From the IMG/VR virus record IMGVR_UViG_2721755498_000003: a stretch of DNA of 15,362 nucleotides; one strand, 5' to 3'. The notes under the pieces were generated by a model. That model saw nothing but the letters and a program-made list of their open reading frames with translations. It was not told the DNA's origin and searched no databases. Numbering within the stretch: position 1 is the stretch's first letter; every line of letters begins with the position of its first letter. A program made the position numbers and the translations under genes. This stretch comes from a virus (taxonomy: Duplodnaviria > Heunggongvirae > Uroviricota > Caudoviricetes). Positions 1 through 15,362 of this stretch are shown here, one piece after another.

Positions 1-19
1 CTATTTGATAAATATTAAA

Positions 20-1315
20 TTAATTTTTCATTGCTTCGTTATGGGGCATGGTTGGGGCAAACTCGCTTAACTGTGTATTTAACAAAGCTACCTGTGCATT
101 ATTGTTTTCAGACATCCATTTTCCGTATACCTGAAATACCATTTGCGCATTTGCATGGCCCATCTGGTTTGCTATAAATGCCGGGTTAGCACCAGCTGTC
201 AGCGACCAGCAGGCATAAGTATGTCTCGACTGATATGATTTTCGATGGCGGAGTCCGGCACGTTTTATCGCTGCGTCCCACATCTGCCTTATTGAGTCAA
301 CGGTAAAATGGTCACCATAATTTTTTACTCTCGCTGACACTTCAGGTTGAAAAACAAAGGTGCATTTTTGTTTTTCTGTTCTGCCATACTCTCTGAGGTG
401 AACATCAATGATATGCTCTTTGCTCAGTCTCGTTAATGTCATCTGACTCCGGAGAGCGTCGATTGCTGGCTTAATAAGATGAATGACCCGATTGGTTCCC
501 GCCTGTGTTTTTGGTACCGTGAAACGGTCTTTTGCTAAATTTCTCCTGATCATCATTGTTCCATTTTTCAGATCTATGTCCTCCCATCCAAGTGCACACA
601 GCTCACCAGGGCGAACGCCAGTATAAACAGAAACACACCATAAATTTTTTGCTTGCTGATTTCTGCACGCATCGATAAGACGGATAAATTCCTCCCGCGA
701 AAGAGGATCCGGAATGGTTCTTGATTCCTTTAATGGCGAGATCCCCTTAAACGGATTATCTGCCAGGTAACCGTTATCAACACCAAACTGGAACACGGCG
801 TTAAGATTTGTCATGTAATTATTTACAGTTACAGCCGATCTCCCTGGTTGTGTAACAATATAGTTACTTTTGGGGATCTGGTATCCAGTCAGTAGCTCTT
901 TACGAACCTCCAGTAATTTTTCTTTATTAATCGATGAGGCAAGATTTTTTTCACCGATTATGCTCAGGATATTTTTGATGACGGCACGGTATGTGTTGAG
1001 TGATGTTTTGGCGACTTCAGTTTCTTTCAGTGCCAGAAATTTTTCAGCCAGTTCTTTTATGGTTAAATCTTGTCGGGCCTCACCAAATTTTTCCAGATTG
1101 CGTGAGGAGGGAAACTGTTTTGCATAGTCGAAAACACCAGTTTTTATTGCGTAACAAACAGAGGAGCGTAGTTCACCTGCAACGCGCCTGTTTTTTGCTG
1201 TGTCAGGAACCCCCAGATTTTCCCTGACTCTTACGCCTTTATAAACAAACCAGATACGTAATTTCCCTCCATGGTTTTCCACGCCTGTCGGATATTTCAT
1301 TTCAACTTCTCTCAT
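20..1315 (-). CDS. Phage tyrosine integrase (site-specific recombinase)
   Basis: 431-aa ORF at the prophage end. C-terminal region carries the tyrosine-recombinase signature (...SRHTYACW... then ...MGHANAQMVFQVYGKW..., i.e. R/H-x-x-R box and GH...Y catalytic tyrosine, like lambda Int LGHKSDTMASQY). Followed on the same strand by a small xis-like gene. The 3' end abuts the window start, so the att site should lie just left of position 20. Confidence 0.9.
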   Translation of the reverse strand: MREVEMKYPTGVENHGGKLRIWFVYKGVRVRENLGVPDTAKNRRVAGELRSSVCYAIKTGVFDYAKQFPSSRNLEKFGEARQDLTIKELAEKFLALKETEVAKTSLNTYRAVIKNILSIIGEKNLASSINKEKLLEVRKELLTGYQIPKSNYIVTQPGRSAVTVNNYMTNLNAVFQFGVDNGYLADNPFKGISPLKESRTIPDPLSREEFIRLIDACRNQQAKNLWCVSVYTGVRPGELCALGWEDIDLKNGTMMIRRNLAKDRFTVPKTQAGTNRVIHLIKPAIDALRSQMTLTRLSKEHIIDVHLREYGRTEKQKCTFVFQPEVSARVKNYGDHFTVDSIRQMWDAAIKRAGLRHRKSYQSRHTYACWSLTAGANPAFIANQMGHANAQMVFQVYGKWMSENNNAQVALLNTQLSEFAPTMPHNEAMKN

Positions 1316-1334
1316 TAGTTAGTGTGGCTTTTAG

Positions 1335-1586
1335 TTAAGTAAGATGACGTCTTGGTCTCGCTGATGCCTGGCGCTCAATCCAGCGATCAATTTCTTCCAG
1401 GTTGTAAAAGCATGGACTGTTATCCCATGGCATACCGTCATGAGCGACATGCTTATATTCCCTTCCTTCCATAAACGATTTTTCCCGGGCCTTTTTTAAC
1501 GTACCTTTTTTTATTCCTTTCAGCGCAATTAACTGCTCTTCGGATACCCATTTGCCGGGAGAGACAATCATGATTACTTCGCTCAT
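1335..1586 (-). CDS. Excisionase-like small protein (Xis-type directionality factor)
   Basis: 83-aa ORF immediately upstream of int on the same strand with a 19-nt gap; basic C-terminus (RQASARPRRH). Size and position are typical of lambdoid xis. Function assigned mainly by context. Confidence 0.6.
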   Translation of the reverse strand: MSEVIMIVSPGKWVSEEQLIALKGIKKGTLKKAREKSFMEGREYKHVAHDGMPWDNSPCFYNLEEIDRWIERQASARPRRHLT

Positions 1587-1658
1587 CGATTTCTTTATCT
1601 CTTACATCAGACGAGCGCCGGTTGCAGAATACCAGTCACAACCGGCGACAGTTGAACA

Positions 1659-4130
1659 TTAAGAATCAGCCTGACTCGGGATCAGTTTTTGCCAGATAAC
1701 TGAAACGTATTTTGCCTGGTAACGGGCGTCATCAAGTGCATTATGGCGCTCACCTTCGAATGGAATAGCCGTTCTGGCATCGAAGTCTATGGCTTTCCCC
1801 AGCTCAACGATTGTGCGTACATCGCGATCGTTGTAGTAACGCCACGGGCAGGGGATCCCCTGCCGTTCGTATGAACGGCGCAAAATCGTGTTGTCGAAGT
1901 TGGCTCCATTTCCCCAAACCTGAACAAAAAATTCACCGGAGTTTTCGTCGATAAATTCCCGCAATTGTAACAGTGCATCATCTAACGGGATTTCATCGGT
2001 CATAATGGCAGATTGCGCTTCGCGTGATTGCTTAAGCCACCATTTAATGGTGTCCCGATCAATGACTCCGCCAGCAGTTTCCAGATCGATAGTCTTACTA
2101 TATTCCGGTCCCATATCTCCGGTTTGCGGATCGAAAAATATTGCACCTATTGAGATGATCGGGGCATCAGGATTTTTTCCCATGGTTTCAAGGTCGATCA
2201 TTAGATGGTCACACGTCCTGCTGGTGGATGTGATTTCGTGATGACCGTTCACCTTAATTGGGTGATCTGCCGTCTCGCCAGTTTCATTATCGCTATTGTG
2301 ATGCTGATTGCCGCCAGTGTTCTCCTTGTGTGGATGTTCAGCGCCTTCCATTTCCTCCGGATCATCTTCCTGAACTTCAACCTGATACTCTTCATCGAAT
2401 GTTTCTTGGTATGTTGCGTCGCCCATCACCGCGCCACAATCAGGGCAGTTGCCGCCGCCGGTCTGACCGCAGGCGGTGCAGACTTTTTCCACTTCCTGTT
2501 GCGCCACTGGTTCAGGCTGTTTCGTTTCTGGCTCGTTTTGTAACGCATTTGGACTGTTTTGTTCCGCTTTTTGGTAGTTCCGTTCCGATTCATGCTGGTT
2601 CTGGTTCACAGAATCGCGGGTCTGGATCCCCTTAACCCATTTCGGATCATTCGGGTCACTAATCCCTTCAACAAATTCACCACGTGATGCAGCAAGCAAC
2701 TTATCGGCGTCAGGCTGGCTGATATTGGCTGCCTGCATAATTTTGTTTACTTCGTCAGCGGTAACTTTTATCGGCTCTGGTTGTTCTGAATCTTCAGCGG
2801 TATCTACATTTTGCGGTAAGCCCGTGTATGTGCCATTTTTTCGGGCAAAATATTCTTCTTTTGTGATTTCAGTGGCGCCAGCAGCCAGTGCCTTATCCAG
2901 ACCAGAAAGTTTGTTTGCGCGACCGTATTTTTCTCCGTCCTTATCTGCGAAGAGGAAATAGAACGGCCCCTCACGCTCTACAGATGGTTCAGCTTCCGGC
3001 GCGGTTTCATTTTTTGGGATATCAGATACCTCAGTTTCCACTGCATCAGTTTGTGTTTCTGATGACTGGAGAACATCAACAGTGCCCAGGTCTGTTTCTT
3101 CATTCTCAAACACGCCCTTTGTCGTCAGGTATTCGCAGATATATTTGTTCAGTGCTATGGGATCTTTGTGAATGTCGATCGGACGCTCACGGACAAGGCC
3201 AAAAATAGTCTGGCGGTCGTAGCGAAGGGCATCAGGCTGTTTGCGCATTGATGCCGAGATACGCTTCCAGTCTTCGCGGTCGTTGTCGATAACTTCTTTT
3301 TTTGCCCAGCGATGGATGCTGCCGTCAATGTTTCCGGCATCCACATCACCAGGCCAGAGAGCGTAGGCCAGTTCGTCATCCAGTGTTTTCCATGTCTGCT
3401 TGTATTCGCGATGAATGGCAGCAATGACCGGGCTGATTTTTCCTGTTGAATTTTCAGTGTACTGTTGATTGGTTCTGGCGCGGGCGAGATCAACAACAGA
3501 CGTGTATTTTCCGGTTTCCTTGCGTTCACCTTCGCGACGTTTTTTCCAGATGCGCATCTCTGCCTGAATTTCGGGCCATTTAGCACCAGGAATACATTTA
3601 TGCTTAACCCACCCAATGGCGTGCAACTTAAGCTCCGGATACATGGCGTTAACTTCTGGCATTTTCATCAACGCTTCAACGATATGTCCGTCGAATGTTG
3701 CCATGTCTTCCTGCAACAATTCCTGTGCGCTAATAACCATATCAACGGTGATGTTTTCACATGTGTCGAACTTAACCATGACAGCGTTCTGTACTTCAGG
3801 GGCCAGCTTGTCAAAAGTGACGTTCATCGGATCGGATTCAGTCTCAACCGGGACAAAAGAAGCAGACTCCTCATCCCAGCGGTTTTCCTGCATATATTCA
3901 GCATCCCATGAATCGAGGGCAGGGCGGGGTATGCCAGGTTTATCCTCGCAGACAATAAATTTATAAGCGCAGTCCTGAGCAGCCGGATAATGTTCCAGGA
4001 ACTGCCAGTGAAATTTTGCTCGAGCACGGCGTTCGTCGCCAGCTTCAATGGCTGTGGCTACAGCCACAGCGCCTTCTTCCCTTGTTGCCAGTTCGTCAGG
4101 AATAGCGGCGCAAATAAAGACTTTACTCAT
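1659..4130 (-). CDS. RecE-like exodeoxyribonuclease VIII-family protein with C-terminal DnaQ-like DEDDh 3'-5' exonuclease domain
   Basis: 823-aa ORF with GAGG RBS upstream of the ATG at 4128-4130. Central segment KLLAASRGEFVEGISDPNDPKWVKGIQTRD matches the conserved RecE core as I recall it. C-terminal ~180 aa carry DEDDh motifs (HLMIDLETMG ... FDNT ... HNALDDARYQ). Long Asp/Glu-rich linkers and a C-x2-C-x7-C-x2-C zinc ribbon (CTACGQTGGGNCPDC, nt 2436-2480). Confidence 0.8.
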   Translation of the reverse strand: MSKVFICAAIPDELATREEGAVAVATAIEAGDERRARAKFHWQFLEHYPAAQDCAYKFIVCEDKPGIPRPALDSWDAEYMQENRWDEESASFVPVETESDPMNVTFDKLAPEVQNAVMVKFDTCENITVDMVISAQELLQEDMATFDGHIVEALMKMPEVNAMYPELKLHAIGWVKHKCIPGAKWPEIQAEMRIWKKRREGERKETGKYTSVVDLARARTNQQYTENSTGKISPVIAAIHREYKQTWKTLDDELAYALWPGDVDAGNIDGSIHRWAKKEVIDNDREDWKRISASMRKQPDALRYDRQTIFGLVRERPIDIHKDPIALNKYICEYLTTKGVFENEETDLGTVDVLQSSETQTDAVETEVSDIPKNETAPEAEPSVEREGPFYFLFADKDGEKYGRANKLSGLDKALAAGATEITKEEYFARKNGTYTGLPQNVDTAEDSEQPEPIKVTADEVNKIMQAANISQPDADKLLAASRGEFVEGISDPNDPKWVKGIQTRDSVNQNQHESERNYQKAEQNSPNALQNEPETKQPEPVAQQEVEKVCTACGQTGGGNCPDCGAVMGDATYQETFDEEYQVEVQEDDPEEMEGAEHPHKENTGGNQHHNSDNETGETADHPIKVNGHHEITSTSRTCDHLMIDLETMGKNPDAPIISIGAIFFDPQTGDMGPEYSKTIDLETAGGVIDRDTIKWWLKQSREAQSAIMTDEIPLDDALLQLREFIDENSGEFFVQVWGNGANFDNTILRRSYERQGIPCPWRYYNDRDVRTIVELGKAIDFDARTAIPFEGERHNALDDARYQAKYVSVIWQKLIPSQADS

Positions 4131-4223
4131 TTTGTTTTAACCTCATGACAGATTTAAGGATGAACAAATCCCTGCCATTGCTGGCATATAAGAATGAAAC
4201 CGGATATTTATTACGGAACTGTT

Positions 4224-4415
4224 TTAAAGACCTGCCGGGATTTCGATATTATCCTGGTGAATAACTTTATCGACCGGGTAACAGTTACCGGGAATTTTCT
4301 GTTCGGTTGCTGCAGTCATACACTCCTGCATTGTCCTGTGCACACTGACTGCAATATCAACTGGCTCTCCGGAAACAAGAAAAACTGTCAGAACAAGCAC
4401 AAATGCTGAATTCAT
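4224..4415 (-). CDS. ydfD: Small lysis protein YdfD (63 aa) with N-terminal hydrophobic segment
   Basis: Start chosen at the internal ATG (4413-4415) that gives MNSAFVLVLTVFLVSGEPVD..., matching Qin YdfD as I recall it. This ATG overlaps the dicB stop in an ATGA arrangement, suggesting translational coupling. The six-frame ORF extends to 4469 but that extension lacks an RBS. Confidence 0.7.
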   Translation of the reverse strand: MNSAFVLVLTVFLVSGEPVDIAVSVHRTMQECMTAATEQKIPGNCYPVDKVIHQDNIEIPAGL

Positions 4416-4600
4416 TGTGCACATCCTTTTGGCATCAGACGTAAACGAGCCAGCATTGAAACAATGCATATTTTATTTAATAGCTCCCGTTCTTGTTTTC
4501 TCTTGTTAATGGCATCTTCAGTAAATACTGGGTTACTGATAGTGACACCAATTTCAAAACAACCTTCAGACGTATTAACGTTTGGTAATAACGTTTTCAT
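4412..4600 (-). CDS. dicB: Cell-division inhibitor DicB (62 aa)
   Basis: Internal Met of ORF 4412..4705 gives MKTLLPNVNTSEGCFEIGVTISNPVFTEDAINKRKQERELLNKICIVSMLARLRLMPKGCAQ, which I recognise as DicB. GAGG RBS lies about 9 nt upstream. Located downstream of DicF in the same operon, as in Qin. Confidence 0.8.
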   Translation of the reverse strand: MKTLLPNVNTSEGCFEIGVTISNPVFTEDAINKRKQERELLNKICIVSMLARLRLMPKGCAQ

Positions 4601-4769
4601 TATCGCGTCCTCAACAATGAATTTTGTGATGCAGTGCCTGGTGCCTCCAGGTGACGTTAACCAGTTAACAATTAACGCCGGATACAGAGAATCCACCCAT
4701 AACACTGTTTTTGGTTTTAACTGTTCCGCGTGCGCTCAGCCGCATTCACCACATCACAAAATTCACTTT

Positions 4770-4827
4770 AAAAAGGGCGGCAGAGCAGTCACGGAGTAAA
4801 ACTGATACCGCCAAACGTCACCAGAAA
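4770..4827 (-). ncRNA. dicF: DicF small regulatory RNA (ftsZ-targeting sRNA) with intrinsic terminator
   Basis: Minus-strand sequence TTTCTGGTGACGTTTGGCGGTATCAGTTTTACTCCGTGACTGCTCTGCCGCCCTTTTT matches the DicF RNA as I recall it. It ends in a GGCGG...CCGCC hairpin followed by a T-run. Lies between ydfC and dicB. Confidence 0.8.
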
Positions 4828-5167
4828 ATTGATAACAGAGGGCGTTGCAGCGGGGTTGTCACTTAAGCGTATGGTCAACCTGACAACCCGGTGTCCTCAA
4901 CGGGGAAGGAATAACCTCGCCATACTTACCGCCGCGCCATTTCGCGGGTTGCCACAACCGGAAGCGCACGGTCGACGAAAATTTAACGACAGGCTATCTA
5001 TGAACCAGCTACCTCGCCGTGCGCTTTCGCGTTATGGTCTGACTTTTCAGGGAAATATCCTTTCAGTAAACTGTCAGTGCCGGATGCTCACCCGTGTCCG
5101 GCGCACGCACTCCACCTCACCCGTGGAGAACTCCTTAATTACTAACCTTAGCTTTGTTGATTAGCTA

Positions 5168-5386
5168 CTAACGCGGGTATGTAATCATTCTGGCAATGCT
5201 TAATGCCGCTGCTTTTTCCAGATTGGTGATATCCTGCTCCAGAGCGGACAGATTTTCAGCCTGCTTAGCCCTGGTTTCATTGGCCCATTTCAAATCCTGC
5301 GCTGCATTAATTTTCTGGCGCATCCACTCATAAAGTTCATCATCGGTATAGTCTGGCGCGATGATGACGGGTTCTCGTTTCTGCAT
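5168..5386 (-). CDS. ydfC: YdfC-like small protein (72 aa)
   Basis: 72-aa ORF (MQKREPVIIAPDYTDDELYEWMRQKINAAQDLKWANETRAKQ...) with GAGG RBS 8 nt upstream. Position in the ydfABC-dicF-dicB operon as in Qin. Confidence 0.7.
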   Translation of the reverse strand: MQKREPVIIAPDYTDDELYEWMRQKINAAQDLKWANETRAKQAENLSALEQDITNLEKAAALSIARMITYPR

Positions 5387-5415
5387 ACTGATTCCTCGCG
5401 GTGCTGTTTCGCTTA

Positions 5416-5544
5416 TCAGCCGTTAGATTTTGCCGAACTGGAAAGCGCCTGTTTAAATTCGTTGAAGCTGAGAGCTTCTTCGCCGTCGGCAAGACCTTCG
5501 AAGTATTCTTCGTAAGCCTTTTCCATGATTGTGTCGAAATCCAT
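5416..5544 (-). CDS. ydfB: YdfB-like small acidic protein (42 aa)
   Basis: Not in the six-frame track because it is under 60 aa. Hand translation of the minus strand gives MDFDTIMEKAYEEYFEGLADGEEALSFNEFKQALSSSAKSNG then TGA. AGGT-type RBS 7 nt upstream; the start lies 1 nt after the ydfA stop. An in-frame upstream ATG at 5584-5586 would add 14 aa (MVPVAGWKETQVSD) overlapping ydfA. Confidence 0.6.
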   Translation of the reverse strand: MDFDTIMEKAYEEYFEGLADGEEALSFNEFKQALSSSAKSNG

Positions 5545-5545
5545 A

Positions 5546-5701
5546 TCACTCACCTGGGTTTCTTTCCAGCCAGCGACGGGCACCATTTTCGGTTTTAAAC
5601 GTTTTGCTTTTGGTATACGTCATCGCGGTGAACGTACCGTCCTGGTTGGGGAACACGCCACATACCAGAGATTCGCTGTTGCCAAGATCGATAGTATCCA
5701 T
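5546..5701 (-). CDS. ydfA: YdfA-like small protein (51 aa)
   Basis: Start chosen at the internal ATG (5699-5701) giving MDTIDLGNSESLVCGVFPNQDGTFTAMTYTKSKTFKTENGARRWLERNPGE, with GAGG RBS 5 nt upstream. The longer six-frame ORF to 5755 has no RBS. First gene of the dicB operon. Confidence 0.6.
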   Translation of the reverse strand: MDTIDLGNSESLVCGVFPNQDGTFTAMTYTKSKTFKTENGARRWLERNPGE

Positions 5702-5780
5702 GCTGACCTCATTTCCCCTTAACGCCGGGGTAGCGGAACTGTTTGCTGAGAACACCGTGCGGTGTCTTGATGGAAAATAA

Positions 5781-5834
5781 TTTAGAATAACCTAACATGA
5801 GAGGCAAGTGTTTTTTGTTAGATTGATCTAACAA
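5781..5834 (-). promoter_or_regulatory. Promoter/operator region of the ydfABC-dicF-dicB operon (P_dicB analogue) with palindromic repressor operator
   Basis: Near-perfect palindrome TTGTTAGA-TTGA-TCTAACAA at 5815-5834, plus a degenerate second site at about 5781-5798 (TTTAGA...CTAACA). On the minus strand a TTGCCT -35-like hexamer sits between the two sites. Located between the dicA stop and the ydfA start. Confidence 0.5.
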
Positions 5835-5869
5835 AAAGGGTGGGCGCAACTAATCACTTGAAAAGAATG

Positions 5870-6277
5870 TTATTTTATTGATTTATTTTTACGCGCTTTA
5901 AGCATTTCTTCGAAGAGTTTGTTGAAGTTTTCTACTCTTGCGCGCATTTCAGACAGCAAGGCTTCCTGCTCGGAAGATGGAAGAGCATCGAATAATTCGA
6001 TCAATTCTTTGTGGTTGGGAGTTAGCTCTGTTTCCACATGAAGTTCTTGTGCAGGCACTGGTGCCTTGTCTTCGTCACCAAACATTAGCCATGTAGGTGA
6101 GCACTTCAGAGCATCCGCTAAAGCAAACAATCGTTTTCCGACTGGCTGGGTTTCGTCTCTTTCCCATTGTGAAATTGTGACGTGAGCAACTCCAGCGAGG
6201 CGCGCGGCTTCTCGTTGTGTTAAGCGTAATTCTTTTCGTCGCGCCAGAACTCGCTGGCCCAGGGTTCTTGTATCCAT
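5870..6277 (-). CDS. dicA: DicA-like repressor (XRE/cI-type HTH N-terminus, DicA-type C-terminus)
   Basis: 135-aa ORF. HTH region LTQREAARLAGVAHVTISQWERDETQP. C-terminal motifs CSPTWLMFGDEDK and EMRARVENFNKLFEEMLKAR are recognisably DicA-like, but the N-terminal half is diverged from my recollection of K-12 DicA. Divergent from a Cro-like gene. Confidence 0.8.
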   Translation of the reverse strand: MDTRTLGQRVLARRKELRLTQREAARLAGVAHVTISQWERDETQPVGKRLFALADALKCSPTWLMFGDEDKAPVPAQELHVETELTPNHKELIELFDALPSSEQEALLSEMRARVENFNKLFEEMLKARKNKSIK

Positions 6278-6299
6278 AGTTAGGTAATTCTAATTTTTC

Positions 6300-6344
6300 T
6301 TGACTTAGGTATCCCGCGCACAATAATGTTAGAAAAGTCTAACA
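6300..6344 (+). promoter_or_regulatory. Rightward early promoter (P_dicC, pR analogue) with overlapping operator
   Basis: -35 TTGACT (6300-6305), 16-nt spacer, -10 AATAAT (6322-6327). The palindrome TGTTAGA-AAAG-TCTAACA (6327-6344) overlaps the -10 and start site. On the opposite strand a TAGAAT -10-like element sits 12 nt before the dicA ATG, suggesting a nearly leaderless repressor transcript. Confidence 0.55.
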
Positions 6345-6358
6345 AGAGGGGGGCTTTG

Positions 6359-6586
6359 ATGCTTAAAGTTGACGCAATTACTTTTTTTGGCAGCAAAACA
6401 AAGCTTGCCAATGCCGCAGGAGTGAGGCTGGCAAGTGTTGCTGCTTGGGAGATACTGGTTCCTGAAGGTCGCGCGATGCGTCTACAGGAGGCATCTGGCG
6501 GGGAGCTTCAGTATGATCCCAAAGTTTATGATGAATATCGTAAGACGAAGCGGGCGGGGCGGTTGAACAATGAAAATCACTCCTGA
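6359..6586 (+). CDS. dicC: DicC/Cro-like small regulator (75 aa)
   Basis: Start at the internal ATG 6359 (MLKVDAITFFGSKTKLANAAGVRLASVAAW...) preceded by a GAGGGG RBS. The six-frame ORF starts at 6326 inside the operator. Divergent from dicA, in the Cro position of the switch. Confidence 0.7.
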   Translation: MLKVDAITFFGSKTKLANAAGVRLASVAAWEILVPEGRAMRLQEASGGELQYDPKVYDEYRKTKRAGRLNNENHS

Positions 6587-8077: not shown

Positions 8078-8500
8078 GTGGCAAAAGTTTTTACACAAGA
8101 AGAGCGGGAAAAAATTAAATGGCAGGTGGTGGAACTCGTGCGCCAGAGCGGCCGTGAGACGTTACGGCAACTGGAAGCTAAAACAGGTGCGACTAGATAT
8201 CTGATGAGCGTTCTTGCCAGAGAGCTGGTAGCCAGTGGCGATGTATACAACTCCGGCTACGGGTTATTCCCCTCTGAACAGGCGCGTAAGGACTGGCAAA
8301 ACGCCCGCAAAAAACTCTCGAGGGCAAAGGTGAAGAAACCTGCTGTGGTTGATCCGGACCTTATCTGGTCATCACCTGACGGAGAAATACGTCGCTACGA
8401 CAGTCGCCTAAACATAATCTGTCGCGAGTGCCGGAAGAGCGAAGTTATGCAGCGCATACTGGCTTTCTATCAGGGTAATTTTCAGGACGTGGCGCAGTGA
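8078..8500 (+). CDS. Hypothetical phage protein (140 aa), possible winged-helix DNA-binding protein
   Basis: GTG start at 8078 with a strong RBS (TAAGGGGGA) 4 nt upstream. Its stop overlaps the start of the next ORF in a GTGA arrangement. No motif I can assign with confidence. Confidence 0.6.
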   Translation: MAKVFTQEEREKIKWQVVELVRQSGRETLRQLEAKTGATRYLMSVLARELVASGDVYNSGYGLFPSEQARKDWQNARKKLSRAKVKKPAVVDPDLIWSSPDGEIRRYDSRLNIICRECRKSEVMQRILAFYQGNFQDVAQ

Positions 8501-8853
8501 GTGCACCGGCAACCATTCTTGATATGTGCTGTGGCAGCCGCATGTTCTGGTTCGATAAGTCTGACAAACGGGCGATATTCAGCGATATCAGAAAAGAAGG
8601 ATACACATTACGCAATGGGAGACGCTTGATTATCAGCCCTGACATTATCGCAGATTTTCGTGCATTATCATTTGCAGACGCATCTTTTTCGATGGTTGTA
8701 TTAGACCCTCCGCATCTTGAGCGTGTTGGTGATAACGCCTGGATGGGAAAGAAATATGGACGGCTGAATAAAGATGCCTGGCGTGATGATTTGCGACAGA
8801 GATTTAAAGAAGCTTTTCGGGTGTTGAGGCCGCACGGCGTTCTGATTTTTTAA
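8497..8853 (+). pseudogene. Beta-class N6A/N4C DNA methyltransferase, N-terminal fragment (3'-truncated)
   Basis: FSMVVLDPPHLERVGDNAW...RFKEAFRVLRPHGVLIF matches the beta-class layout (hydrophobic run, DPPY-type motif, then RVLKPGG-type motif), with His replacing the usual aromatic residue. The ORF stops 3 codons after that motif. No FxGxG AdoMet-binding region follows in any frame. Confidence 0.5.
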
Positions 8854-9115
8854 TGGAATGAAACGCAAATACCGGTAAGCCAGATTCTGGCACTGACAGA
8901 TAGAAAGCCTGTTATCTGTCAACGAACAGGGAAAAAACGATAAAACCCACTGGATTATTTTTATGAAAGAGGCATCCAGTGAGTAGATTCGTAAGGTTAC
9001 AGATACGTATATCTGAATAATTAAATTCAGTTCTGTAAATAAAACTTAATCCTTAACCGGATGGATTTCTGCACCCTCAGAACATCAGGAGGCCGCCCGA
9101 AAGGGCGGTAGTGAA

Positions 9116-9757
9116 ATGCGAAAGTTCAAAATTATTATTGAAACGGAAATAGCTGGTGGAGATTTTGAGGATGTATTCGAAGTGGACGATAACGCAACAC
9201 CTGATGAAATTCATGACGGAGCATAAGAAATTTTCTTTAACTACTGCAATTACTCATACCACGAAATAAAAGACGATGAGGAAGAACAAAGTGGCTGATT
9301 TTTGTTCAGCTAAATATAACATCAGTTTTGAAGAGCGGGATGAACTATTAATGGACTATGGTGAATTACGCGGTGGAAGTGCTGCTGATGTCGAATCCTA
9401 GCGTGATGACTATGAAGCGGGAAAAACTCCGGTCGAAGCATATTGTGATGAGTGGGGCGATGAATGAGCGAGATTAATTATCAGGAAGGGCATGAAACGG
9501 CGGGGCAAGCAAAACCAGTGGCATGGCGATATCGCTACGTGAAAAAAGCGTTACGGACTTTCAGGGGAAGTAGTGGTCTGGTGACTGGAAATATGTACCG
9601 AAAAAAGAGGATTGTAACGACAGGCCGAACTATCAAATTCAGGCCTTATTCACTGCCTCACCAGTCCCGGTTACATCAGAAGAACTGGTTAAAGCTGTGC
9701 ACTTTTATGAACAACTAAAACGCGAAAATCCACCAACATCCGGCAACTAGATTAATG
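9116..9757 (+). pseudogene. Frameshifted/interrupted remnants of small acidic phage ORFs
   Basis: Protein-like reading frames are split by stops and frame changes: 9116-9226 (MRKFKIIIETEIAGGDFEDVFEVDDNATPDEIHDGA), an in-frame continuation to 9298, 9276-9401, 9464-9718, and a +1 frame reading ...DWKYVPKKEDCNDRPNYQIQALFTASPVPVTSEELVKAVHFYEQLKRENPPTSGN ending at 9750. Confidence 0.3.
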
Positions 9758-10004
9758 GATTAACTATGTCGGTTAAACGACCAGCCAACTGAAAAAGCGG
9801 AAACCTGATTACAGGTTGCCAGATAAGGCAATGAGCTACCTGGCGCGGAACGGACTGATAAGTATGGGGAATGTTTTACGATGAACCTTTAGACTAAAGA
9901 GTTTGTAACGCTATGTAAGTGATTTTTTCTGGTTTAGATGTTTATATGTCCGGCCAAATTGAGGTGTGTTTAAATGTAATTGCACATTGATTGTAGGAGG
10001 AATA

Positions 10005-10184
10005 ATGAAAAACGCATTGCAGTTTTTGTTTGTTGCGTTCTGGTTGTTCGCATCATGTATGCCCATCATCTTCACAGCAAGGTATATGGAAAAAGTTGAT
10101 GTTTTGATATTAATATTTGGATATATAAATGCCCTTTTTTTAGGGGTGTTCATGGCGGTCATGTGCATTGAATACTGGCGGTAA
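10005..10184 (+). CDS. Small hydrophobic membrane protein (59 aa, two predicted TM segments)
   Basis: Start at ATG 10005 with a strong RBS (TAGGAGG) 4 nt upstream. Translation MKNALQFLFVAFWLFASCMPIIFTARYMEKVDVLILIFGYINALFLGVFMAVMCIEYWR. AT-rich codon usage unlike the flanking phage genes. Confidence 0.45.
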   Translation: MKNALQFLFVAFWLFASCMPIIFTARYMEKVDVLILIFGYINALFLGVFMAVMCIEYWR

Positions 10185-10518
10185 ATACAGCGAACTCCAT
10201 TGGTTTAGTTGGATATTTACTGTGCTGGACAAAAACGGTTTGCGGGGAAATCTTAGTTAAGTAGAATGACTGCGGGTGCTTGAGGCTATCTGCCTCGGGC
10301 ATGGACACCAACGGCAGATAGAGAAAAGCCCCAGTTAACATTACGCGTCCTGCAAGACGCTTAACATTAATCTGAGGCCAATTTCATGCTAGACACATGT
10401 AGGTTAGCCTCTTACGTGCCGAAAGGCACGGAGAAGCAGGCTATTGTTAACACCAAGCTGTAATGTCCCCTTTGAACCATTCTAAAATGTCCCCAGACAA
10501 TTCTCTGGGGGATTTTTC

Positions 10519-11859
10519 ATGATCAAAGAGACTGTTACGATGAGTCATAAGGAACTCCACCGACTTCAGATTATTCAGGAGTCAATTAATCGACATATTA
10601 CTCAGGAACAAGCTGCGGCACGCATTGGCATTTCTATTCGGCAGGTTAAACGTCTGGTGCAACGGTATAGAAATGAAGGGCCTTCTGGTCTGGTTTCCCA
10701 CCGACGTGGAAAGCGTCCTAATAATTCCTTTTCTACTGAATTCAGAGCAACAGTAATTTCACTCCTCAAAGGCCGTTACGCTGATTTTGGACCTACGTTT
10801 GCGTGCGAAAAATTGCGCGAGATACACGGTTTATCTTTATCCGTTGAAACTCTCAGAAAGTGGATGATAGAAGAGGGGTTATGGCGTGAACGCCGTCGTA
10901 AAATTGCCCGTATATATCAACGCCGCATGCGACGACCATCTTACGGTGAACTGATCCAGATTGATGGCTCACCTCATGACTGGTTTGAAAATCGAGGCCC
11001 CAGATGTACACTGATCGTTTTCATTGATGATGCCACCAGTGCGTTGATGGCGTTGCGTTTTGTGCCTGCTGAAACAACCCGGGCTTACATGGAAACCCTC
11101 CGGGGTTACCTTAATGATCATGGCGTACCGCTCGCTCTCTACTCTGATAGACACAGTATATTCAGGGTAAATAACCCAGAGCGGGAAGGTGAGCTGACCC
11201 AGTTCACTCGTGCGATAAAGACACTGGGCATCGAGCCAATCCATGCCAACAGCCCGCAGGCAAAAGGGCGGGTAGAGCGCGCCAATCAGACACTACAGGA
11301 CAGGCTGGTCAAAGAAATGCGGCTTCAGAATATCAGTGATATTGAAACAGCAAATGCATGGTTGCCGACCTTTATTGAAGCCTATAACAACCGGTTCGCT
11401 ACGTCGCCTCGTACTACTGATAATGCTCATCTTGATGTGCACCATTCTGAAGAGGAACTGGGTTATATCTTCAGCCTACAGGCGAAGCGCGTTCTGTCTA
11501 AAAATCTCACTTTCCAGTACAAAAGCAGTGCGTTTCAGGTACGCAGTGAGAGCCGGGGATATCGACTTAGGCATTCGGTTGTTACTGTATGCGAGAACTT
11601 TGACGGTGAAATTAACGTTCTGTATGACGGGAAAGCGCTGGGCTGGGAAAAGTATGTTGATGGCCCGGAGCCTATACCACTGGATGATGAAAAGAGTGTC
11701 CATGAACGAGTGGATAATGCCCGTATTGATTTACGCTCAAAATACTATGTTAAACCTAAAGCTGACCATCCCTGGCTTACGCGCCGAACGCAAAGTCATC
11801 AGCAAGTTAAGCCCCCGAAGTTACCTAAAAAGAAGCCTGATCCCGATAAAAAAGATTGA
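10519..11859 (+). CDS. DDE transposase with N-terminal HTH and rve-type integrase core (single-ORF IS, ISNCY/IS1202-like)
   Basis: 446-aa ORF with RBS GGGGGA 7 nt upstream. HTH region QEQAAARIGISIRQVKRLV. Catalytic triad candidates: D in IQIDGSPHDW, D in LYSDRHSIF, E in KGRVERANQTLQ. Basic Lys/Pro-rich C-terminal tail. Family assignment is from memory, not a search. Confidence 0.85.
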   Translation: MIKETVTMSHKELHRLQIIQESINRHITQEQAAARIGISIRQVKRLVQRYRNEGPSGLVSHRRGKRPNNSFSTEFRATVISLLKGRYADFGPTFACEKLREIHGLSLSVETLRKWMIEEGLWRERRRKIARIYQRRMRRPSYGELIQIDGSPHDWFENRGPRCTLIVFIDDATSALMALRFVPAETTRAYMETLRGYLNDHGVPLALYSDRHSIFRVNNPEREGELTQFTRAIKTLGIEPIHANSPQAKGRVERANQTLQDRLVKEMRLQNISDIETANAWLPTFIEAYNNRFATSPRTTDNAHLDVHHSEEELGYIFSLQAKRVLSKNLTFQYKSSAFQVRSESRGYRLRHSVVTVCENFDGEINVLYDGKALGWEKYVDGPEPIPLDDEKSVHERVDNARIDLRSKYYVKPKADHPWLTRRTQSHQQVKPPKLPKKKPDPDKKD

Positions 11860-11913
11860 AACCAAGATCGATTCGGTTGAGTGCATATCCATTCATAGGG
11901 TAGATTCTTAAGT

Positions 11914-11979
11914 CGCGTTTCTGGTGTTCATTTTCGGGTGGTTTGTTACTTGTTTTACCGGGGATATGCCAGAAACGCG
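11914..11979. repeat. Perfect 11-bp inverted repeat (CGCGTTTCTGG ... CCAGAAACGCG) with 44-nt loop
   Basis: Arms at 11914-11924 and 11969-11979, 55 nt downstream of the transposase stop. The loop contains the alternative right-end candidate. Confidence 0.6.
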
Positions 11980-12254
11980 CTGAGTCAGTCTGGGCGGTGC
12001 GCGTAATGAGGCGTTATGGTAAATAGCCTATGCTAATGTCCGCTAAGAGCAAGAAGCGGAAGTTGGCATTTTTGTGGACTGTCCCCACAAAAGTGACTAC
12101 AGAAATAGTTGCAATTCATAATTGATCATGGGTTGTCAGTTAAACTCGTGGCGATTTAAATAGACTAATTGGGAGTGCGTCCATTACTTATATCTTGTAA
12201 TGTTAACTATCAGAAATGATACAAAGATAATATGTCTTTAAAGAAAAGGCTGAT

Positions 12255-12281
12255 GGCGAAAAGTGGCCCGATGAGGGCCAC
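12255..12281 (-). terminator. Probable intrinsic terminator of flxA
   Basis: Minus-strand hairpin GTGGCCC-TCATC-GGGCCAC followed by TTTTCG, immediately after the flxA stop. Confidence 0.45.
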
Positions 12282-12295
12282 AATACGGCTGTCAC

Positions 12296-12628
12296 TTAGA
12301 CGTAAATATCAATGGTGCCAGCGGTATTTGTATCGTCTTTTTTCTCTTCTTTTTTATCAGGCTGAACTGTCGCGTCTTCATTCTTTTTCTCTGCCTGCTG
12401 CCTTAACAACTGCTCCAGTTGAGCCCAGAGGCTTTCAATTTGCTTCTGTACCAATGCAGCCATTTCTTTTTTCTGCTGTGTCGTCATCCCCTCTTCCGAT
12501 GAGATTTTCCCAAGCTTTTCAGTCAGCACCTGAATTTGTCTTGTGATTTTGGCTATTTCTGATGTTCCTTCCGGGGCGGAGTTGTTTGAAATAACGGTTG
12601 AGGTATTTCCCTGAATTGTGACAGACAT
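12296..12628 (-). CDS. flxA: FlxA-like protein (FliA/sigma-28-regulated, Gln/Lys-rich coiled-coil-like)
   Basis: 110-aa ORF (MSVTIQGNTSTVISNNSAPEGTSEIAKITRQIQVLTEKL...) with AAGGAG RBS and a canonical sigma-28 promoter immediately upstream. Confidence 0.75.
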   Translation of the reverse strand: MSVTIQGNTSTVISNNSAPEGTSEIAKITRQIQVLTEKLGKISSEEGMTTQQKKEMAALVQKQIESLWAQLEQLLRQQAEKKNEDATVQPDKKEEKKDDTNTAGTIDIYV

Positions 12629-12651
12629 AGATTTCTCCTTTTAAAAAAGCA

Positions 12652-12678
12652 CTATCGGCATGAACAAAAAAATCTTTA
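12652..12678 (-). promoter_or_regulatory. Sigma-28 (FliA) promoter for flxA
   Basis: Minus-strand TAAA-N15-GCCGATAG (consensus TAAA-N15-GCCGATAA). -35 TAAA is the complement of 12675-12678; -10 is the complement of 12652-12659; spacer exactly 15 nt; about 24 nt before the flxA ATG. Confidence 0.7.
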
Positions 12679-12830
12679 ATCGTATTTCTTGTGTCATTAA
12701 TTGTTTGATGTTCAGATTGTTTTCCTCGCGGGCTGGCGCGCCTCAGAAAGTAAAGCTTGTTGACAGGGGTAAACGTTCGGCAATAATTTTCTGCCGCATG
12801 CGGGTGTTGCATAAAACGTGTTACGTTCCT

Positions 12831-13136
12831 TTATCGACAGGTCAGGTCACCGCTCACCCGCCGACGAGAAAGCAACACTGACATGCTAAAGCAAAAAATA
12901 GATGAATAAGTTGAGTTGTGCATATGTAGCCTGACCGTCACAAAGTATATGGTGTCTGTACCAGTAAGATGATGGCCGGACTCTTTAAAAACGAGCTGAC
13001 CTGCACAATACAGGATGGACTTAGCAATGGCTGCTCCTGGCAGAAAGCGGACAGTGATCACCGTTCTTACGACTACTTTCTGACTTCCTTCGTGACTTGC
13101 CCTAAGCATGTTGTAGTGCGATACTTGTAATGACAT
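12831..13136 (-). CDS. YdfV-like hypothetical ORF (101 aa), doubtful
   Basis: 101-aa ORF between flxA and relB, matching the size and position of the ydfV annotation in Qin. No clear RBS; its 5' end overlaps the relB promoter; composition is not convincingly protein-like. Confidence 0.3.
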   Translation of the reverse strand: MSLQVSHYNMLRASHEGSQKVVVRTVITVRFLPGAAIAKSILYCAGQLVFKESGHHLTGTDTIYFVTVRLHMHNSTYSSIFCFSMSVLLSRRRVSGDLTCR

Positions 13137-13148
13137 TTGTAATTACAA
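13097..13148 (+). promoter_or_regulatory. relBE promoter and relO operator
   Basis: -35 TTGCCC (13097-13102), 17-nt spacer, -10 GATACT (13120-13125). Repeated TTGTAAT hexads including the perfect palindrome TTGTAATTACAA (13137-13148), just upstream of the relB RBS AGAGGTG. Confidence 0.7.
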
Positions 13149-13160
13149 GAGGTGTAAGAC

Positions 13161-13400
13161 ATGGGTAGCATTAACCTGCGTATTGACGATGAACTTAAAG
13201 CGCGTTCTTACGCCGCGCTTGAAAAAATGGGTGTAACTCCTTCTGAAGCGCTTCGTCTCATGCTCGAGTATATCGCTGACAATGAACGCTTGCCGTTCAA
13301 ACAGACACTCCTGAGTGATGAAGATGCTGAACTTGTGGAGATAGTGAAAGAACGGCTTCGTAATCCTAAGCCAGTACGTGTGACGCTGGATGAACTCTGA
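13161..13400 (+). CDS. relB: RelB antitoxin
   Basis: 79-aa ORF MGSINLRIDDELKARSYAALEKMGVTPSEALRLMLEYIADNERLPFKQ..., recognisably RelB. Its stop overlaps the relE start in a TGATG arrangement. Confidence 0.9.
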   Translation: MGSINLRIDDELKARSYAALEKMGVTPSEALRLMLEYIADNERLPFKQTLLSDEDAELVEIVKERLRNPKPVRVTLDEL

Positions 13401-13687
13401 TGGCGTATTTTCTGGATTTTGACGAGCGGGCACTAAAGGAATGGCGAAAGCTGGGCTCGACGGTACGTGAACAGTTGAAAAAGAAGCTGGTTGAAGTACT
13501 TGAGTCACCCCGGATTGAAGCAAACAAGCTCCGTGGTATGCCTGATTGTTACAAGATTAAGCTCCGATCTTCAGGCTATCGCCTTGTATACCAGGTTATA
13601 GACGAGAAAGTTGTCGTTTTCGTGATTTCTGTTGGGAAAAGAGAACGCTCGGAAGTATATAGCGAGGCGGTCAAACGCATTCTCTGA
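13400..13687 (+). CDS. relE: RelE toxin (ribosome-dependent mRNA interferase)
   Basis: 95-aa ORF MAYFLDFDERALKEWRKLGSTVREQLKKKLVEVLESPRIEANKLRGMPDCYKIKLRSSGYRLVYQVIDEKVVVFVISVGKRERSEVYSEAVKRIL, recognisably RelE. Confidence 0.9.
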   Translation: MAYFLDFDERALKEWRKLGSTVREQLKKKLVEVLESPRIEANKLRGMPDCYKIKLRSSGYRLVYQVIDEKVVVFVISVGKRERSEVYSEAVKRIL

Positions 13688-13758
13688 ACCAAAGCATGAC
13701 ATCTCTGTTTCGCACCGAAGGTGACACTTCTGCTTTGCGTTGACAGGAGAAGCAGGCT

Positions 13759-13914
13759 ATGAAGCAGCAAAAGGCGATGTTAATCGCCCTGATCGTCATC
13801 TGTTTAACCGTCATAGTGACGGCACTGGTAACGAGGAAAGACCTCTGCGAGGTACGAATCCGAACCGGCCAGACGGAGGTCGCTGTCTTCACAGCTTACG
13901 AACCTGAGGAGTAA
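13759..13914 (+). CDS. hokD: Hok-family small membrane toxin (HokD/RelF)
   Basis: Below the six-frame size cutoff. Hand translation gives MKQQKAMLIALIVICLTVIVTALVTRKDLCEVRIRTGQTEVAVFTAYEPEE (51 aa), with GGAG RBS 8 nt upstream. A 15-codon upstream ORF (13697-13744) ends 14 nt before the start. Confidence 0.8.
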   Translation: MKQQKAMLIALIVICLTVIVTALVTRKDLCEVRIRTGQTEVAVFTAYEPEE

Positions 13915-13984
13915 GAGACTCGGCGAGTGAGAAATCCCTCGCCACCTCTGATGTGGCAGGCATCCTCAACGCACCCGCACTTAA

Positions 13985-14014
13985 CCCGCTTCGGCGGGTT
14001 TTTGTTTTTATTTT
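13985..14014 (+). terminator. Rho-independent terminator after relBE-hokD
   Basis: CCCGC-TTCG-GCGGG hairpin (UUCG tetraloop) followed by TTTTTGTTTTTATTTT. Confidence 0.8.
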
Positions 14015-14130
14015 CAACGCATTTGAAGTTCTGGATGGTGCCGGAATAGAATCAAAAATACTTAAGTAGCGCGCAGGGATAAGAGGGATGGTCCCTTAAA
14101 GGGGAGAGCTAATTATCCGGAAGGATTCTG

Positions 14131-14382
14131 ATGATGAACATCGAAGAACTGCGTAAAATTTTTTGTGAAGATGGCCTCTATGCTGTGTGCGTTGAAAATG
14201 GAAATATTGCTAGTCATTACCGCATTGTGTGTTTGCAAAAAAATGGGGCTGCGTTAATTAATTATGTGGATGCCCGAGTGACGGACGGATTTATCTTGCG
14301 CGACGGTGAGTTTGTCACTTCATTACAGGCATTAAAAGAGATCGGAATAAAAGCTGGCTTTTCTGCTTTTTCAGAAGAATAA
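14131..14382 (+). CDS. rem: Rem-like small protein (83 aa)
   Basis: 83-aa ORF in the position of rem downstream of hokD in Qin. Identity is by size, order and recollection. Confidence 0.55.
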   Translation: MMNIEELRKIFCEDGLYAVCVENGNIASHYRIVCLQKNGAALINYVDARVTDGFILRDGEFVTSLQALKEIGIKAGFSAFSEE

Positions 14383-14448
14383 ACTCATCTACAATCTTGC
14401 GCGGGGCTGAACTCCCGCTGAGTAACACCGTGCCACCGGAGAAAACCG

Positions 14449-14967
14449 ATGGCACGCAACGCAAAATATTACAATCATGATAATTCGACCGTTCTTGCCC
14501 ACACGCACGAGCGGTATTCTCACGCATTTAAGTCAGACTGGTACCAGCATCCCCCATGCACTGAAGAACAGGCCGAATGGCTCATTCAGTGTTACCGCAG
14601 GCGCGGATGCGAGGTTAAAAAAGCCCTTAGCCTCGACTACCGTCACTGGATAATCTCCGTCAGGCTTCCTTACTCCGAACGCCCACCGCGTCCGTCCCGC
14701 ACATTCCAGCAACGCATCTGGAGGTAACGTGCGGGTATTACTTCGACCTGTTCTGGTATGCCAGCCGACGATCCGCATCATCTGATTGGTCACGGGCAGG
14801 GCGGAATGGGAACCAAAGCACATGATCTCTTTGTGTTGCCTTTGTGCAGAAAGCATCACGACGAGTTGCATACGGATACCGTGGCATTTGAAGAGAAGTA
14901 TGGCTCCCAACTGGAGCTGATTTTTCGATTTATCGATCGCGCGCTGGCAATTGGTGTGCTGGCCTAA
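14449..14967 (+). pseudogene. DUF968/HNH-like protein (YdfU-type) interrupted by an in-frame TAA
   Basis: ORFs 14449..14727 and 14758..14967 are in the same frame, separated by one TAA at 14728-14730. The downstream part carries the HNH-like motif DDPHHLIGHGQGG...LPLCRKHHDELH. GGAG RBS before 14449; none before the ATG at 14758. Confidence 0.5.
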
Positions 14968-14984
14968 TTTTGTGGAGTAAGTTG

Positions 14985-15362
14985 ATGCGTGATATTCAGA
15001 TGGTTCTTGAGCGTTGGGGGGCATGGGCGGCTAATAATCATGAAGATGTGACCTGGTCGTCCATTGCCGCCGGTTTTAAGGGATTAATTCCTTCAAAAGT
15101 AAGATCTCGTCCGCAATGCTGTGACGATGACGCGATGATCATTTGTGAATGTATGGCTCGCCTGAAAAAAAACAACAGCGATTTACATGATTTATTGGTG
15201 GACTATTATGTCGGCGGCATGACTTTTATGGCGCTTGCACGTAAGCATGGGCGATCTGATTGTTGGGTTGGCAGGATGCTCCAGAAAGCTGAGGGCGTAG
15301 TGGAGGGCATGCTGATGGTGTTGGATCTCCGATTGGAGATGGATGCTGATTGTTCGAAATAA
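14985..15362 (+). CDS. Antitermination protein Q (QuuD/phage 21-82 type)
   Basis: ATG at 14985 with GGAG RBS 7 nt upstream; [39 protein letters not shown]...[18 protein letters not shown]... matches the DLP12 QuuD-type Q family as I recall it. Stop is at the window end. The six-frame track starts at an upstream TTG (14970). Confidence 0.8.

Follow-up and report, generated by a model that had tools for sequence, protein, structure and literature searches.

The window examined here, a 15,362-bp stretch of viral DNA (IMG/VR record IMGVR_UViG_2721755498_000003), carries the genes of a lambdoid prophage from the integrase gene int to the gene for the antiterminator Q. We identify it, with a probability of roughly 0.93, as the early (left) arm of a prophage of the Qin family, integrated between the Escherichia coli genes ydfJ and rspB. 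Genes were identified from a listing of open reading frames (ORFs) and with Rfam, Pfam, PHROGs and NCBIfam; the right edge of the window is the stop codon of Q, and the left edge lies 18 bp short of the attachment (att) core. The order of Qin is kept, with dicA/dicC, ydfABC, DicF, dicB and ydfD on one side and relBE, hokD, rem and ydfU on the other, and the individual proteins are 88-100% identical to those of K-12 (tblastn), with the exception of the repressor (57%). A previous sequence-only reading of the window had listed the dicB operon, DicF, relBE-hokD, flxA and rem in Qin order, and had joined to them an integrase, a xis-like gene, an exonuclease of 823 amino acids (aa), an O-like initiator with iterons, and Q; all of these are present, with their ORFs open. 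The layout is also that of lambdoid phages: int, xis and the recombination genes run leftward, the repressor and cro genes are divergent, and the cII-like gene, O, a nin region and Q run rightward. A leftward operon read from a pL-like promoter (dicBp) would contain, in order, ydfABC, DicF, dicB, ydfD, the exonuclease gene, xis and int, and a rightward operon read from a pR-like promoter would contain dicC/cro, the ydaT/cII-like gene, the O-like initiator gene with its iterons, the DUF977 gene, a decayed nin-like region and Q. Near the repressor gene, at about 5,700, the sign of the GC skew flips, as expected for divergent operons, and a tRNA scan of the window found none, indicating that the element is not integrated at a tRNA gene.

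Two genes usual in lambdoid early regions were not recognized. No P/DnaC-like loader and no N-type antiterminator family was found among the larger ORFs scanned between O and Q and to the left of the repressor gene, and of the small broken ORFs at 8990-10250 the scan covered only a part. The viable phage HannyBb (PP925841) has the same replication module as the window, and its identical O-DUF977 arrangement implies that loader and N-type genes may not be required. Nothing that we found contradicts the identification.

Segment-by-segment comparison (blastn) with the cryptic prophage Qin of K-12 MG1655 (NC_000913, 1,632,277-1,652,745) gave nucleotide identities of 96-99.6% for shared segments, and gene content, collinearity and deletions could be observed directly. 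Window positions 1-1179 match the 3' part of intQ' (99.6%), and in place of positions 1180-3363 K-12 has a 706-bp IS2E remnant. Positions 3364-5988 match ydfE through ydfA and the 3' end of dicA (96.2%), positions 5989-6264 are without a blastn match, positions 6265-6849 match dicC and ydfX (86.6%), and positions 6850-11674 are absent from K-12. To the right, positions 11675-14757 match ydfW through the start of ydfU (98.3%) and positions 14755-14967 match the end of ydfU (95.3%), while the Q gene has no counterpart. Relative to K-12, the window restores 2.2 kb that IS2 replaced there, comprising the 5' end of int, xis and most of the exonuclease gene, and it retains 4.8 kb that K-12 has deleted, comprising the cII-like gene, the O-like initiator gene with five iterons, the DUF977 gene and genes downstream. 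The alignment fully supports the proposal that the window is more complete than K-12 Qin, and the accompanying description of K-12 Qin, as an element struck by IS2 at its int/exonuclease end and stripped of its replication genes, is correct for MG1655.

This comparison provides a clean account of the decay of K-12 Qin, which descends from an element of the window type. One event, involving IS2, removed the 5' end of int, xis and most of the exonuclease gene. A separate deletion of 4.8 kb has one end within the cII-like gene, of which ydfX remains, and the other within a transposase gene, of which ydfW remains. Three K-12 genes can accordingly be recognized as fragments by tblastn: ydfE is the N-terminal 256 aa of the exonuclease, the orphan ydfX corresponds to codons 1-93 of the YdaT/cII-like gene (97.8%; window 6570-6849), and the orphan ydfW is the last 61 codons of an ISEsa1-family transposase gene (window 11675-11859). 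In K-12 Qin, ydfX and ydfW are joined by the 4.8-kb deletion (locus L002, 19175-19637).

The arrangement seen in the window is already known, common and ordinary, and it has also been sequenced as a phage genome. At least 80% of the window is found in one place in 404 of 5,426 complete E. coli genomes, and the whole window is collinear with E. coli chromosomes at up to 99.8% identity. CFSAN064036 is the best match; its copy of the element, flanked by ydfJ' and rspB, extends over about 50.0 kb to pinQ and ydfK, and continues beyond the part shared with the window with lysis genes, cold-shock genes and a lambda-like head/tail set without any annotated pseudogene. Next to the end of this prophage, rspA is without its C-terminus and rspB without its N-terminus (L001, 13635-14832), which indicates a host deletion adjoining the prophage end. 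Among phages, PhiR42_1 (PV340562), a genome of 48.7 kb with ECOR13 as host, aligns with 94% of the window at 98.7% identity, and mEp460_ev081 and Tritos cover 55% and 47%. In 189 strains, the published sizes of Qin span 11 to 97 kb (PMC6379469), and dicBF has been reported in larger prophages (PMC5069750). As first stated, the finding of a fuller Qin-type prophage is therefore of low significance, because such prophages are common, annotated, deposited as phages and discussed in the literature. A paper of 2016 found dicB and DicF in no sequenced phage genome (PMC5069750); the environmental phage HannyBb encodes dicB (98.4% protein identity; L004, 5700-6550), and its DNA is 99.1% identical to window 4224-5047, which spans the DicF locus.

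The geometry of the att site was likewise observed directly. The 11-bp att core (GAAATCCATAA/TTATGGATTTC) lies 19-29 bp to the left of window position 1 and is present at both ends of K-12 Qin. The first bases of the window are the int-side arm, and this arm abuts the core and rspB in K-12 and in the 99.8%-identical genome. Both phage arms are joined across the core in HannyBb and PhiR42_1, which is the attP configuration, so that these records represent excised genomes. The direct repeat that the sequence-only reading expected to the left of position 20 corresponds to this core, which lies outside the window and is seen in relatives only.

The leftward genes (all on the minus strand) begin with an intact tyrosine integrase gene at 20-1315 (a 431-aa ORF, for which the Prokaryotic Genome Annotation Pipeline, PGAP, gives 426 aa starting from 1300), with the Pfam domains Arm-DNA-bind_2 and Phage_integrase. 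Its product carries a private substitution, D389N, which falls two residues C-terminal to the inferred catalytic His and eight N-terminal to the Tyr. The excisionase gene at 1335-1586 (DUF1233, 83 aa; PF06806, 1.6e-31) is absent from K-12. The 823-aa exonuclease, encoded at 1659-4130, matches phrog_2082 over residues 1-822 of 823 and ends in a DEDD-type, Rv2179c-like 3'-5' exonuclease domain (PF16473, residues 642-813); it carries the private substitution F677Y. Assignment of this protein to RecE/exodeoxyribonuclease VIII was rejected, as the NCBIfam RecE model scored 282.7 bits against a cutoff of 1269 and matched the middle region only. Several records call the protein exodeoxyribonuclease VIII despite the failed RecE model, and no annealase gene stands beside it. 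The operon continues with ydfD (4224-4415), the protein of which is identical to that of K-12, and dicB (4412-4600; Pfam DicB), with Pfam DUF1482 and DicB hits in this part of the operon. The small RNA DicF lies at 4775-4826 (Rfam RF00039, 76.7 bits), and ydfC (5168-5386), ydfB (5416-5544) and ydfA (5546-5701) make up the rest of the body of the dicBF operon. Over 4224-5701 this operon shows 94-100% protein identity and 96.2% nucleotide identity to K-12.

The rightward genes (all on the plus strand) include, after cro, a gene for a 173-aa YdaT/cII-like protein at 6570-7091 (Pfam YdaT_toxin; CII-like activator, phrog_163) and a gene for an O-like replication initiator of 321 aa at 7072-8037 (phrog_391, 1.2e-90). 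Inside the latter are five iterons of about 23 bp (family D1; 7400-7531, spaced 23, 23, 23 and 24 bp), directly followed by an A-rich stretch at 7536-7575, which is the layout of a lambda-type origin and marks a predicted origin. The C-terminal half of the initiator matches DnaD-like loader PHROGs. Downstream are a 140-aa DUF977/Ren-like gene (8078-8500; PF06163, phrog_142) and a DNA methyltransferase pseudogene (8497-8986), of which a 118-aa ORF fragment matches phrog_954 at positions 52-165 of 229 only, and which is annotated as "frameshifted; internal stop" in the 99.8%-identical genome. An AT-rich stretch (8987-10253, 39-43% GC) with broken small ORFs follows, and within it is a frameshifted hypothetical gene at 9464-9883; an extra G at 9505, in a G-run of this already frameshifted gene, distinguishes the window from the nearest genome. 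Beyond hokD are rem (14131-14382), encoding an antirepressor of DicA that is 91.6% identical to K-12 Rem, a gene for a hypothetical protein of 92 aa (14449-14727; phrog_1212), a remnant of ydfU (14729-14967; DUF968/HNH) with a 69-aa C-terminal ORF at 14758-14967, and the gene for a 125-aa antiterminator Q at 14985-15362 (PF06530, 1-118 of 118, 6.9e-51). Q is 100% identical to the Q protein of BL21(DE3) and has no match in K-12 Qin, being a different module from ydfT.

The prophage represented by the window is plausibly inducible, as judged from its sequence, and the window copy is partly decayed, with a deletion in ydfU, the methyltransferase pseudogene and the decayed AT-rich stretch. By homology to K-12, the repressor would occupy its operators and close both early promoters, and Rem, for which antirepressor function has been shown in K-12 (PMC10448788), would counteract it by way of a DicA/DicC bistable switch rather than through RecA-mediated cleavage. 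On derepression, the leftward transcript would yield DicF, DicB, YdfD, the exonuclease, Xis and Int, and the rightward transcript would yield Cro, the cII-like protein, Q and the initiator, which would act on the origin inside its own gene. In these statements the functions of promoters, operators and origin, the route of induction and the present activity of any gene are predictions. Heat and urea act on the DicA/DicC switch of K-12, whereas RecA and mitomycin C do not, and the inducing signal of K-12 rem is unknown (PMC10448788). No LexA box (CTGT-N8-ACAG, at most one mismatch) was found near rem or the repressor gene, and the one-mismatch LexA-like sites elsewhere in the window occur at chance frequency.

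It is possible, though we do not favor it, that the window is the arm of a fully functional temperate phage, such that the source prophage excises, replicates and can be induced, for example by mitomycin C. All early ORFs are open, and Int, Xis, the exonuclease and the O-like protein are 99.5%, 100%, 99.6% and 98.8% identical to those of HannyBb, a phage isolated from bird faeces, and their identity to the PhiR42_1 counterparts is 99.4-100% (Int 99.5%, Xis 100%); attP is joined in both of these records, and the closest complete genome carries the 50-kb prophage, whose head and tail genes include no annotated pseudogene. However, the late half of the source prophage lies outside the window, ydfU has suffered a frameshifting deletion, the methyltransferase gene is a pseudogene, and the private D389N substitution of Int stands beside the inferred active-site His. 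The repressor is without a cleavage domain, there is no LexA box near rem, K-12 dicBp is neither induced by mitomycin C nor dependent on RecA (PMC10448788), and plaque formation by PhiR42_1 was not confirmed from any paper. We consider that a mitomycin C assay, as had been suggested, is probably the wrong induction test.

The immunity region of the window differs from that of K-12. The repressor gene (5870-6277, minus strand) encodes a 135-aa protein of the DicA family (NCBIfam DicA NF007257, 224.7 bits against a cutoff of 101), in which Pfam detects helix-turn-helix (HTH) families only (HTH_3) and no S24 peptidase domain. The allele is found in 565 of the 5,426 complete E. coli genomes and the K-12 allele in 851, and the protein is 100% identical (tblastn) to that of the E. 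coli B strain BL21(DE3), annotated as WP_000381212.1. The divergent gene (6359-6586, plus strand) encodes a DicC-like Cro of 75 aa (Pfam P22_Cro), which shares 84% identity with K-12 DicC and differs from it in the N-terminal part only. At the nucleotide level, the diverged block, at about 5770-6470, takes in the repressor gene with the operator regions on both sides of it and the 5' part of cro, and in 50-nt windows identity to K-12 rises from about 60% before 6471 to 100% from about that position. The repressor had been described as diverged in its N-terminal half; it has indeed diverged from DicA, but along its full length (51% over the first 70 alignment columns, 58% over the rest, 67% over the last 45). 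The operon that it controls had been described as conserved, and this is correct from ydfA onward, but the operators of the dicB operon have been replaced.

Four operator-like palindromes of the form TTAG-N6-CTAAC are found in this block. Two (5781-5796 and 5817-5832) are at the putative leftward dicBp/pL-like promoter, which was assigned by alignment to K-12 dicBp, and two (6279-6294 and 6328-6343) are between the repressor and cro genes, where one of them overlaps the -10 element of a candidate pR-like promoter (TTGACT-16-AATAAT, 6300-6327). A search with the operator pattern gave 9 matches where 2.3 were expected, a number reached in 2 of 200 shuffles, and N6 spacing gave the four sites while N7 spacing gave no match. 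The site at 6325-6344 (ATGTTAGAAAAGTCTAACAA) aligns with the K-12 operator Oc (TTGTTAGTCATAACTAACAA) and keeps 13 of 14 arm bases, and that at 5815-5834 has 14 of 14 (TTGTTAG-N6-CTAACAA). The TTAG/CTAAC arm core is identical to that of Oc at all four sites, whereas the central 6 bp differ throughout. In K-12, a single A-to-C change in an arm of Oc abolishes binding by DicA (PMC3441716).

From the divergent repressor, the sequence-only reading had suggested a heteroimmune variant, in which K-12 DicA and the window repressor would fail to repress each other's operators. The 57% identity of the repressors, the replacement of about 700 bp (5770-6470) with operators, repressor gene and 5' part of cro, and the altered center of every operator are in keeping with this suggestion. 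We nevertheless regard it as doubtful. The arm cores are kept at each site, and most or all of the Oc arm bases at two of them; the recognition helix (AHVTISQWE, against SHVSVSQWE in K-12) is mostly retained and HTH helix 2 begins with TQR in both proteins; the repressor passes the NCBIfam DicA model; and both alleles occur on otherwise near-identical arms, as in PhiR42_1 and the window. Heteroimmunity may be possible on these data, but it is not indicated.

The feature of the window most worth following was missed by the sequence-only reading, which also did not mention the orphan sok/mok remnant, the methyltransferase pseudogene, the deletion in ydfU or the difference in type between Q and K-12 ydfT. 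Between 10445 and 13745 (plus strand) lies a transposon of 3,301 bp of the IS1202 family (ISEsa1-type), which starts with TGTTAACACCAAGCTGTAATGTCCCC and finishes with GGTGACACTTCTGCTTTGCGTTGACA. Its imperfect terminal inverted repeats, at 10445-10471 on the left and 13719-13745 on the right, match at 20 of 27 positions, and an intact transposase of 446 aa is encoded at 10519-11859 on the plus strand (NCBIfam ISNCY NF033594, 466 bits against a cutoff of 250). Its other genes are flxA (12296-12628) and ydfV (12831-13136), both on the minus strand, followed on the plus strand by relB (13161-13400; NCBIfam RelB, 133 bits against a cutoff of 96) and relE (13400-13687; NCBIfam RelE/StbE, 54.7 against 27.9). 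The relBE genes are a long-studied chromosomal type II toxin-antitoxin pair; those of the window overlap in the manner of such pairs, and both proteins are 100% identical to K-12. A right end about 1.6 kb from the left end, corresponding to the length given in ISfinder, was not found, the best match to the left repeat being that at 13719-13745. PGAP annotates the transposase gene of CFSAN064036 (L001, 25518-26858) as an ISEsa1-family transposase "missing C-terminus" with a separate ydfW. The gene is a continuous 446-aa ORF identical to that of the window (tblastn), and its division in two is an artefact that the annotation has taken over from K-12.

The ends of this transposon and its flanking duplications can be read directly, and they place its insertion in a hok/sok locus. 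A 15-bp direct repeat, GGAGAAGCAGGCTAT, flanks it at 10430-10444 and 13746-13760, and the right copy provides the ribosome-binding site and the first two bases of the ATG of hokD (13759-13914, plus strand), which lies downstream of relBE and encodes a 51-aa toxin 100% identical to K-12 HokD (NCBIfam Hok family hits fall under the curated cutoffs, 48.5 bits against 73). To the left, at 10254-10444 on the plus strand, is what is left of the 5' half of the ancestral hokD locus, an orphan sok/mok segment that Rfam scores as sok (RF01794, 104.1 bits, 10274-10445) and that is 98.4% identical to the uninterrupted hok locus of HannyBb. A hairpin (GTGCC-GAAA-GGCAC) stands immediately ahead of the insertion point. 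In HannyBb, sok, mok and hok are contiguous, and window 10254-10444 and 13745-14758 align to adjoining, overlapping parts of its sequence, so that HannyBb represents the empty site; in the window, the sok/leader and hokD are 3.3 kb apart. The Qin relic of BL21(DE3) has hokD after the truncated DUF977 gene (L006, 26069-26845), and at this locus tblastn found no transposase, flxA, relB or relE.

The same unit interrupts many other hok-family loci, both plasmid-borne and chromosomal, in several genera of enterobacteria. Three plasmid loci hold it with identical 30-bp ends and a local duplication of their own, which is GGAGAAGAAGGCCAT for an IncF plasmid of Enterobacter and, for two plasmids of E. 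coli, TGGAGGGGCTATGAT (IncI-gamma/K1) and TGGAGGGGCTGCGATG (IncK2/Z). Scans yielded 16 loci in species-representative genomes and 73 in metagenomes; pooled with loci fetched earlier, they gave 23 distinct right flanks, about 16 of which start at the ribosome-binding site of a hok-type gene. The duplications are 15-16 bp wherever both ends of the transposon are visible. Units range from 2.6 to 7.7 kb and consist of a left module of about 1.6 kb with the transposase gene, a variable middle, and a constant right module of about 0.7 kb with relB, relE and the right repeat. Among complete E. coli genomes, 787 contain the left module together with its junction, and about 2,950 match only to base 10444, as expected of the empty site. 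Harmer and Hall described ISEsa1 as 1,609 bp long and without detectable duplication, and reported duplications of 16-17 bp in another subgroup of IS1202 (PMC10132070). The constant modules on either side of a variable middle suggest that the 1,609-bp ISEsa1 entry represents only the left module.

The evidence for the existence of the transposon is strong. We propose, more tentatively, that relBE, flxA and ydfV are its cargo and that it inserts in one direction at the ribosome-binding site and start codon of hok-family genes, with duplication of 15-16 bp. Such an insertion would cut hok off from its own promoter, mok and sok, and a hok gene severed in this manner would explain the relBEF operon of K-12, its missing sokD and the orphan ydfW. 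That the flxA-relBE block spread instead by homologous recombination between hok genes is very improbable. Hok loci are similar enough to recombine, and the block is always in the same relative position and orientation, but recombination would carry old flanks along rather than duplicate new ones, so that the separate local duplication at each insertion (GGAGAAGCAGGCTAT, GGAGAAGAAGGCCAT, TGGAGGGGCTATGAT and TGGAGGGGCTGCGATG) counts against it, as do the identity of the 30-bp ends throughout and the combination of imperfect 27-bp terminal repeats with an intact DDE transposase. No description of a relBE-bearing or hok-targeting transposon was found in the literature searched, although this search was incomplete. 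If the proposal of a relBE-bearing, hok-targeting transposon is true, it changes the reading of the origin of the K-12 relBEF operon, adds a target-specific, cargo-carrying member to the IS1202 family, and shows one addiction module disarming another.

The deletion in ydfU is 811 bp long and out of frame, with its junction at 14757/14758, a 4-bp microhomology (GGTA) and no longer repeat visible at the two breakpoints. The gene is intact in 120 of 120 IMG/VR loci having the breakpoint site, and the junction was found as one piece in none of the 5,426 complete E. coli genomes; no mobile element was found at the breakpoint, where 10 of 3,421 complete genomes are without full coverage of the site and none of these was informative. 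Look-up of the 69-aa ORF recovered the exact 76-nt junction in NCBI assembly GCA_003292515.1 and in an ENA metagenome contig (L029, L033), with 6.6 kb around it at 99.92% identity in both. This recurrence in independent assemblies shows that the deletion is real. A chimeric window, which the sequence-only reading had named as grounds for rejecting its own proposal, or a mis-assembled one with the ydfU deletion as an assembly collapse, could appeal to the lack of the junction in complete genomes; this notion is effectively refuted by the recurrence, by the simple microhomology at the breakpoints and by the collinearity of the rest of the window with many finished chromosomes at 99.8%. One right endpoint, immediately preceding ATGCCAGCC at 14758, is common to at least four different deletions (L026, L027, L029, L030 and L033), and their left partners, at window 14757, 14639, 5664 and 4684, each follow TA. 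The look-up selects junctions that leave the 69-aa ORF, and about 45 bp upstream of its ATG would give the same ORF, so that selection explains the shared endpoint only in part.

Comparison with known systems places the window among several close relatives. K-12 Qin has the same integration site, att core and gene order, and its DicB, YdfD, FlxA, RelB, RelE and HokD are identical, but it has its own dicA/operator block, a full-length ydfU and another Q gene (ydfT, 250 aa). The Qin-like prophage of BL21(DE3) (NC_012971, approximately 1,581,600-1,597,900) has identical repressor and Q proteins, a Cro that is 98.7% identical, and cII-like and O-like genes that are 97-99% identical; in contrast to the window, its int is frameshifted, its exonuclease is truncated to 166 aa, its DUF977 gene is truncated, most of its late region is deleted, and it is without the ISEsa1/flxA/relBE transposon. 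PhiR42_1 shares dicBF, the transposon with relBE, hokD and rem, and is in the attP configuration with a complete late region of lambda type, whereas its dicA allele and 250-aa Q are of the K-12 type, its ydfU is full-length and its transposase gene is broken (annotated as two ORFs; 97.5% by tblastn). HannyBb shares the int-xis-exonuclease-ydfD-dicB-DicF block (99.1%) and the block from the 3' part of cro through the cII-like, O and DUF977 genes (96.3%), but it has another immunity region and an uninterrupted hok/sok locus, without relBE or flxA.

Compared with Gifsy-type repressor/antirepressor immunity and with the DicA-DicC-Rem switch (Ragunathan and Vanderpool 2023), the window likewise has a short HTH repressor without a cleavage domain, a divergent Cro-like gene and rem downstream, and differs in its allelic repressor and operator spacers; no LexA box was found near rem. 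The transposon fits the IS1202 family in its ISNCY/IS1202-type DDE transposase of 446 aa (394-507 aa in the family), its imperfect terminal repeats of about 25 bp (about 24-26 bp in the family), its duplications of 15-16 bp, which are near the 16-17 bp of the long-duplication subgroup, and its strong target preference, as relatives of ISAjo2 have for dif sites. It differs from the ISEsa1 entry in being 3.3 kb long with cargo (flxA, ydfV and relBE) and in having the starts of hok-family genes as its target.

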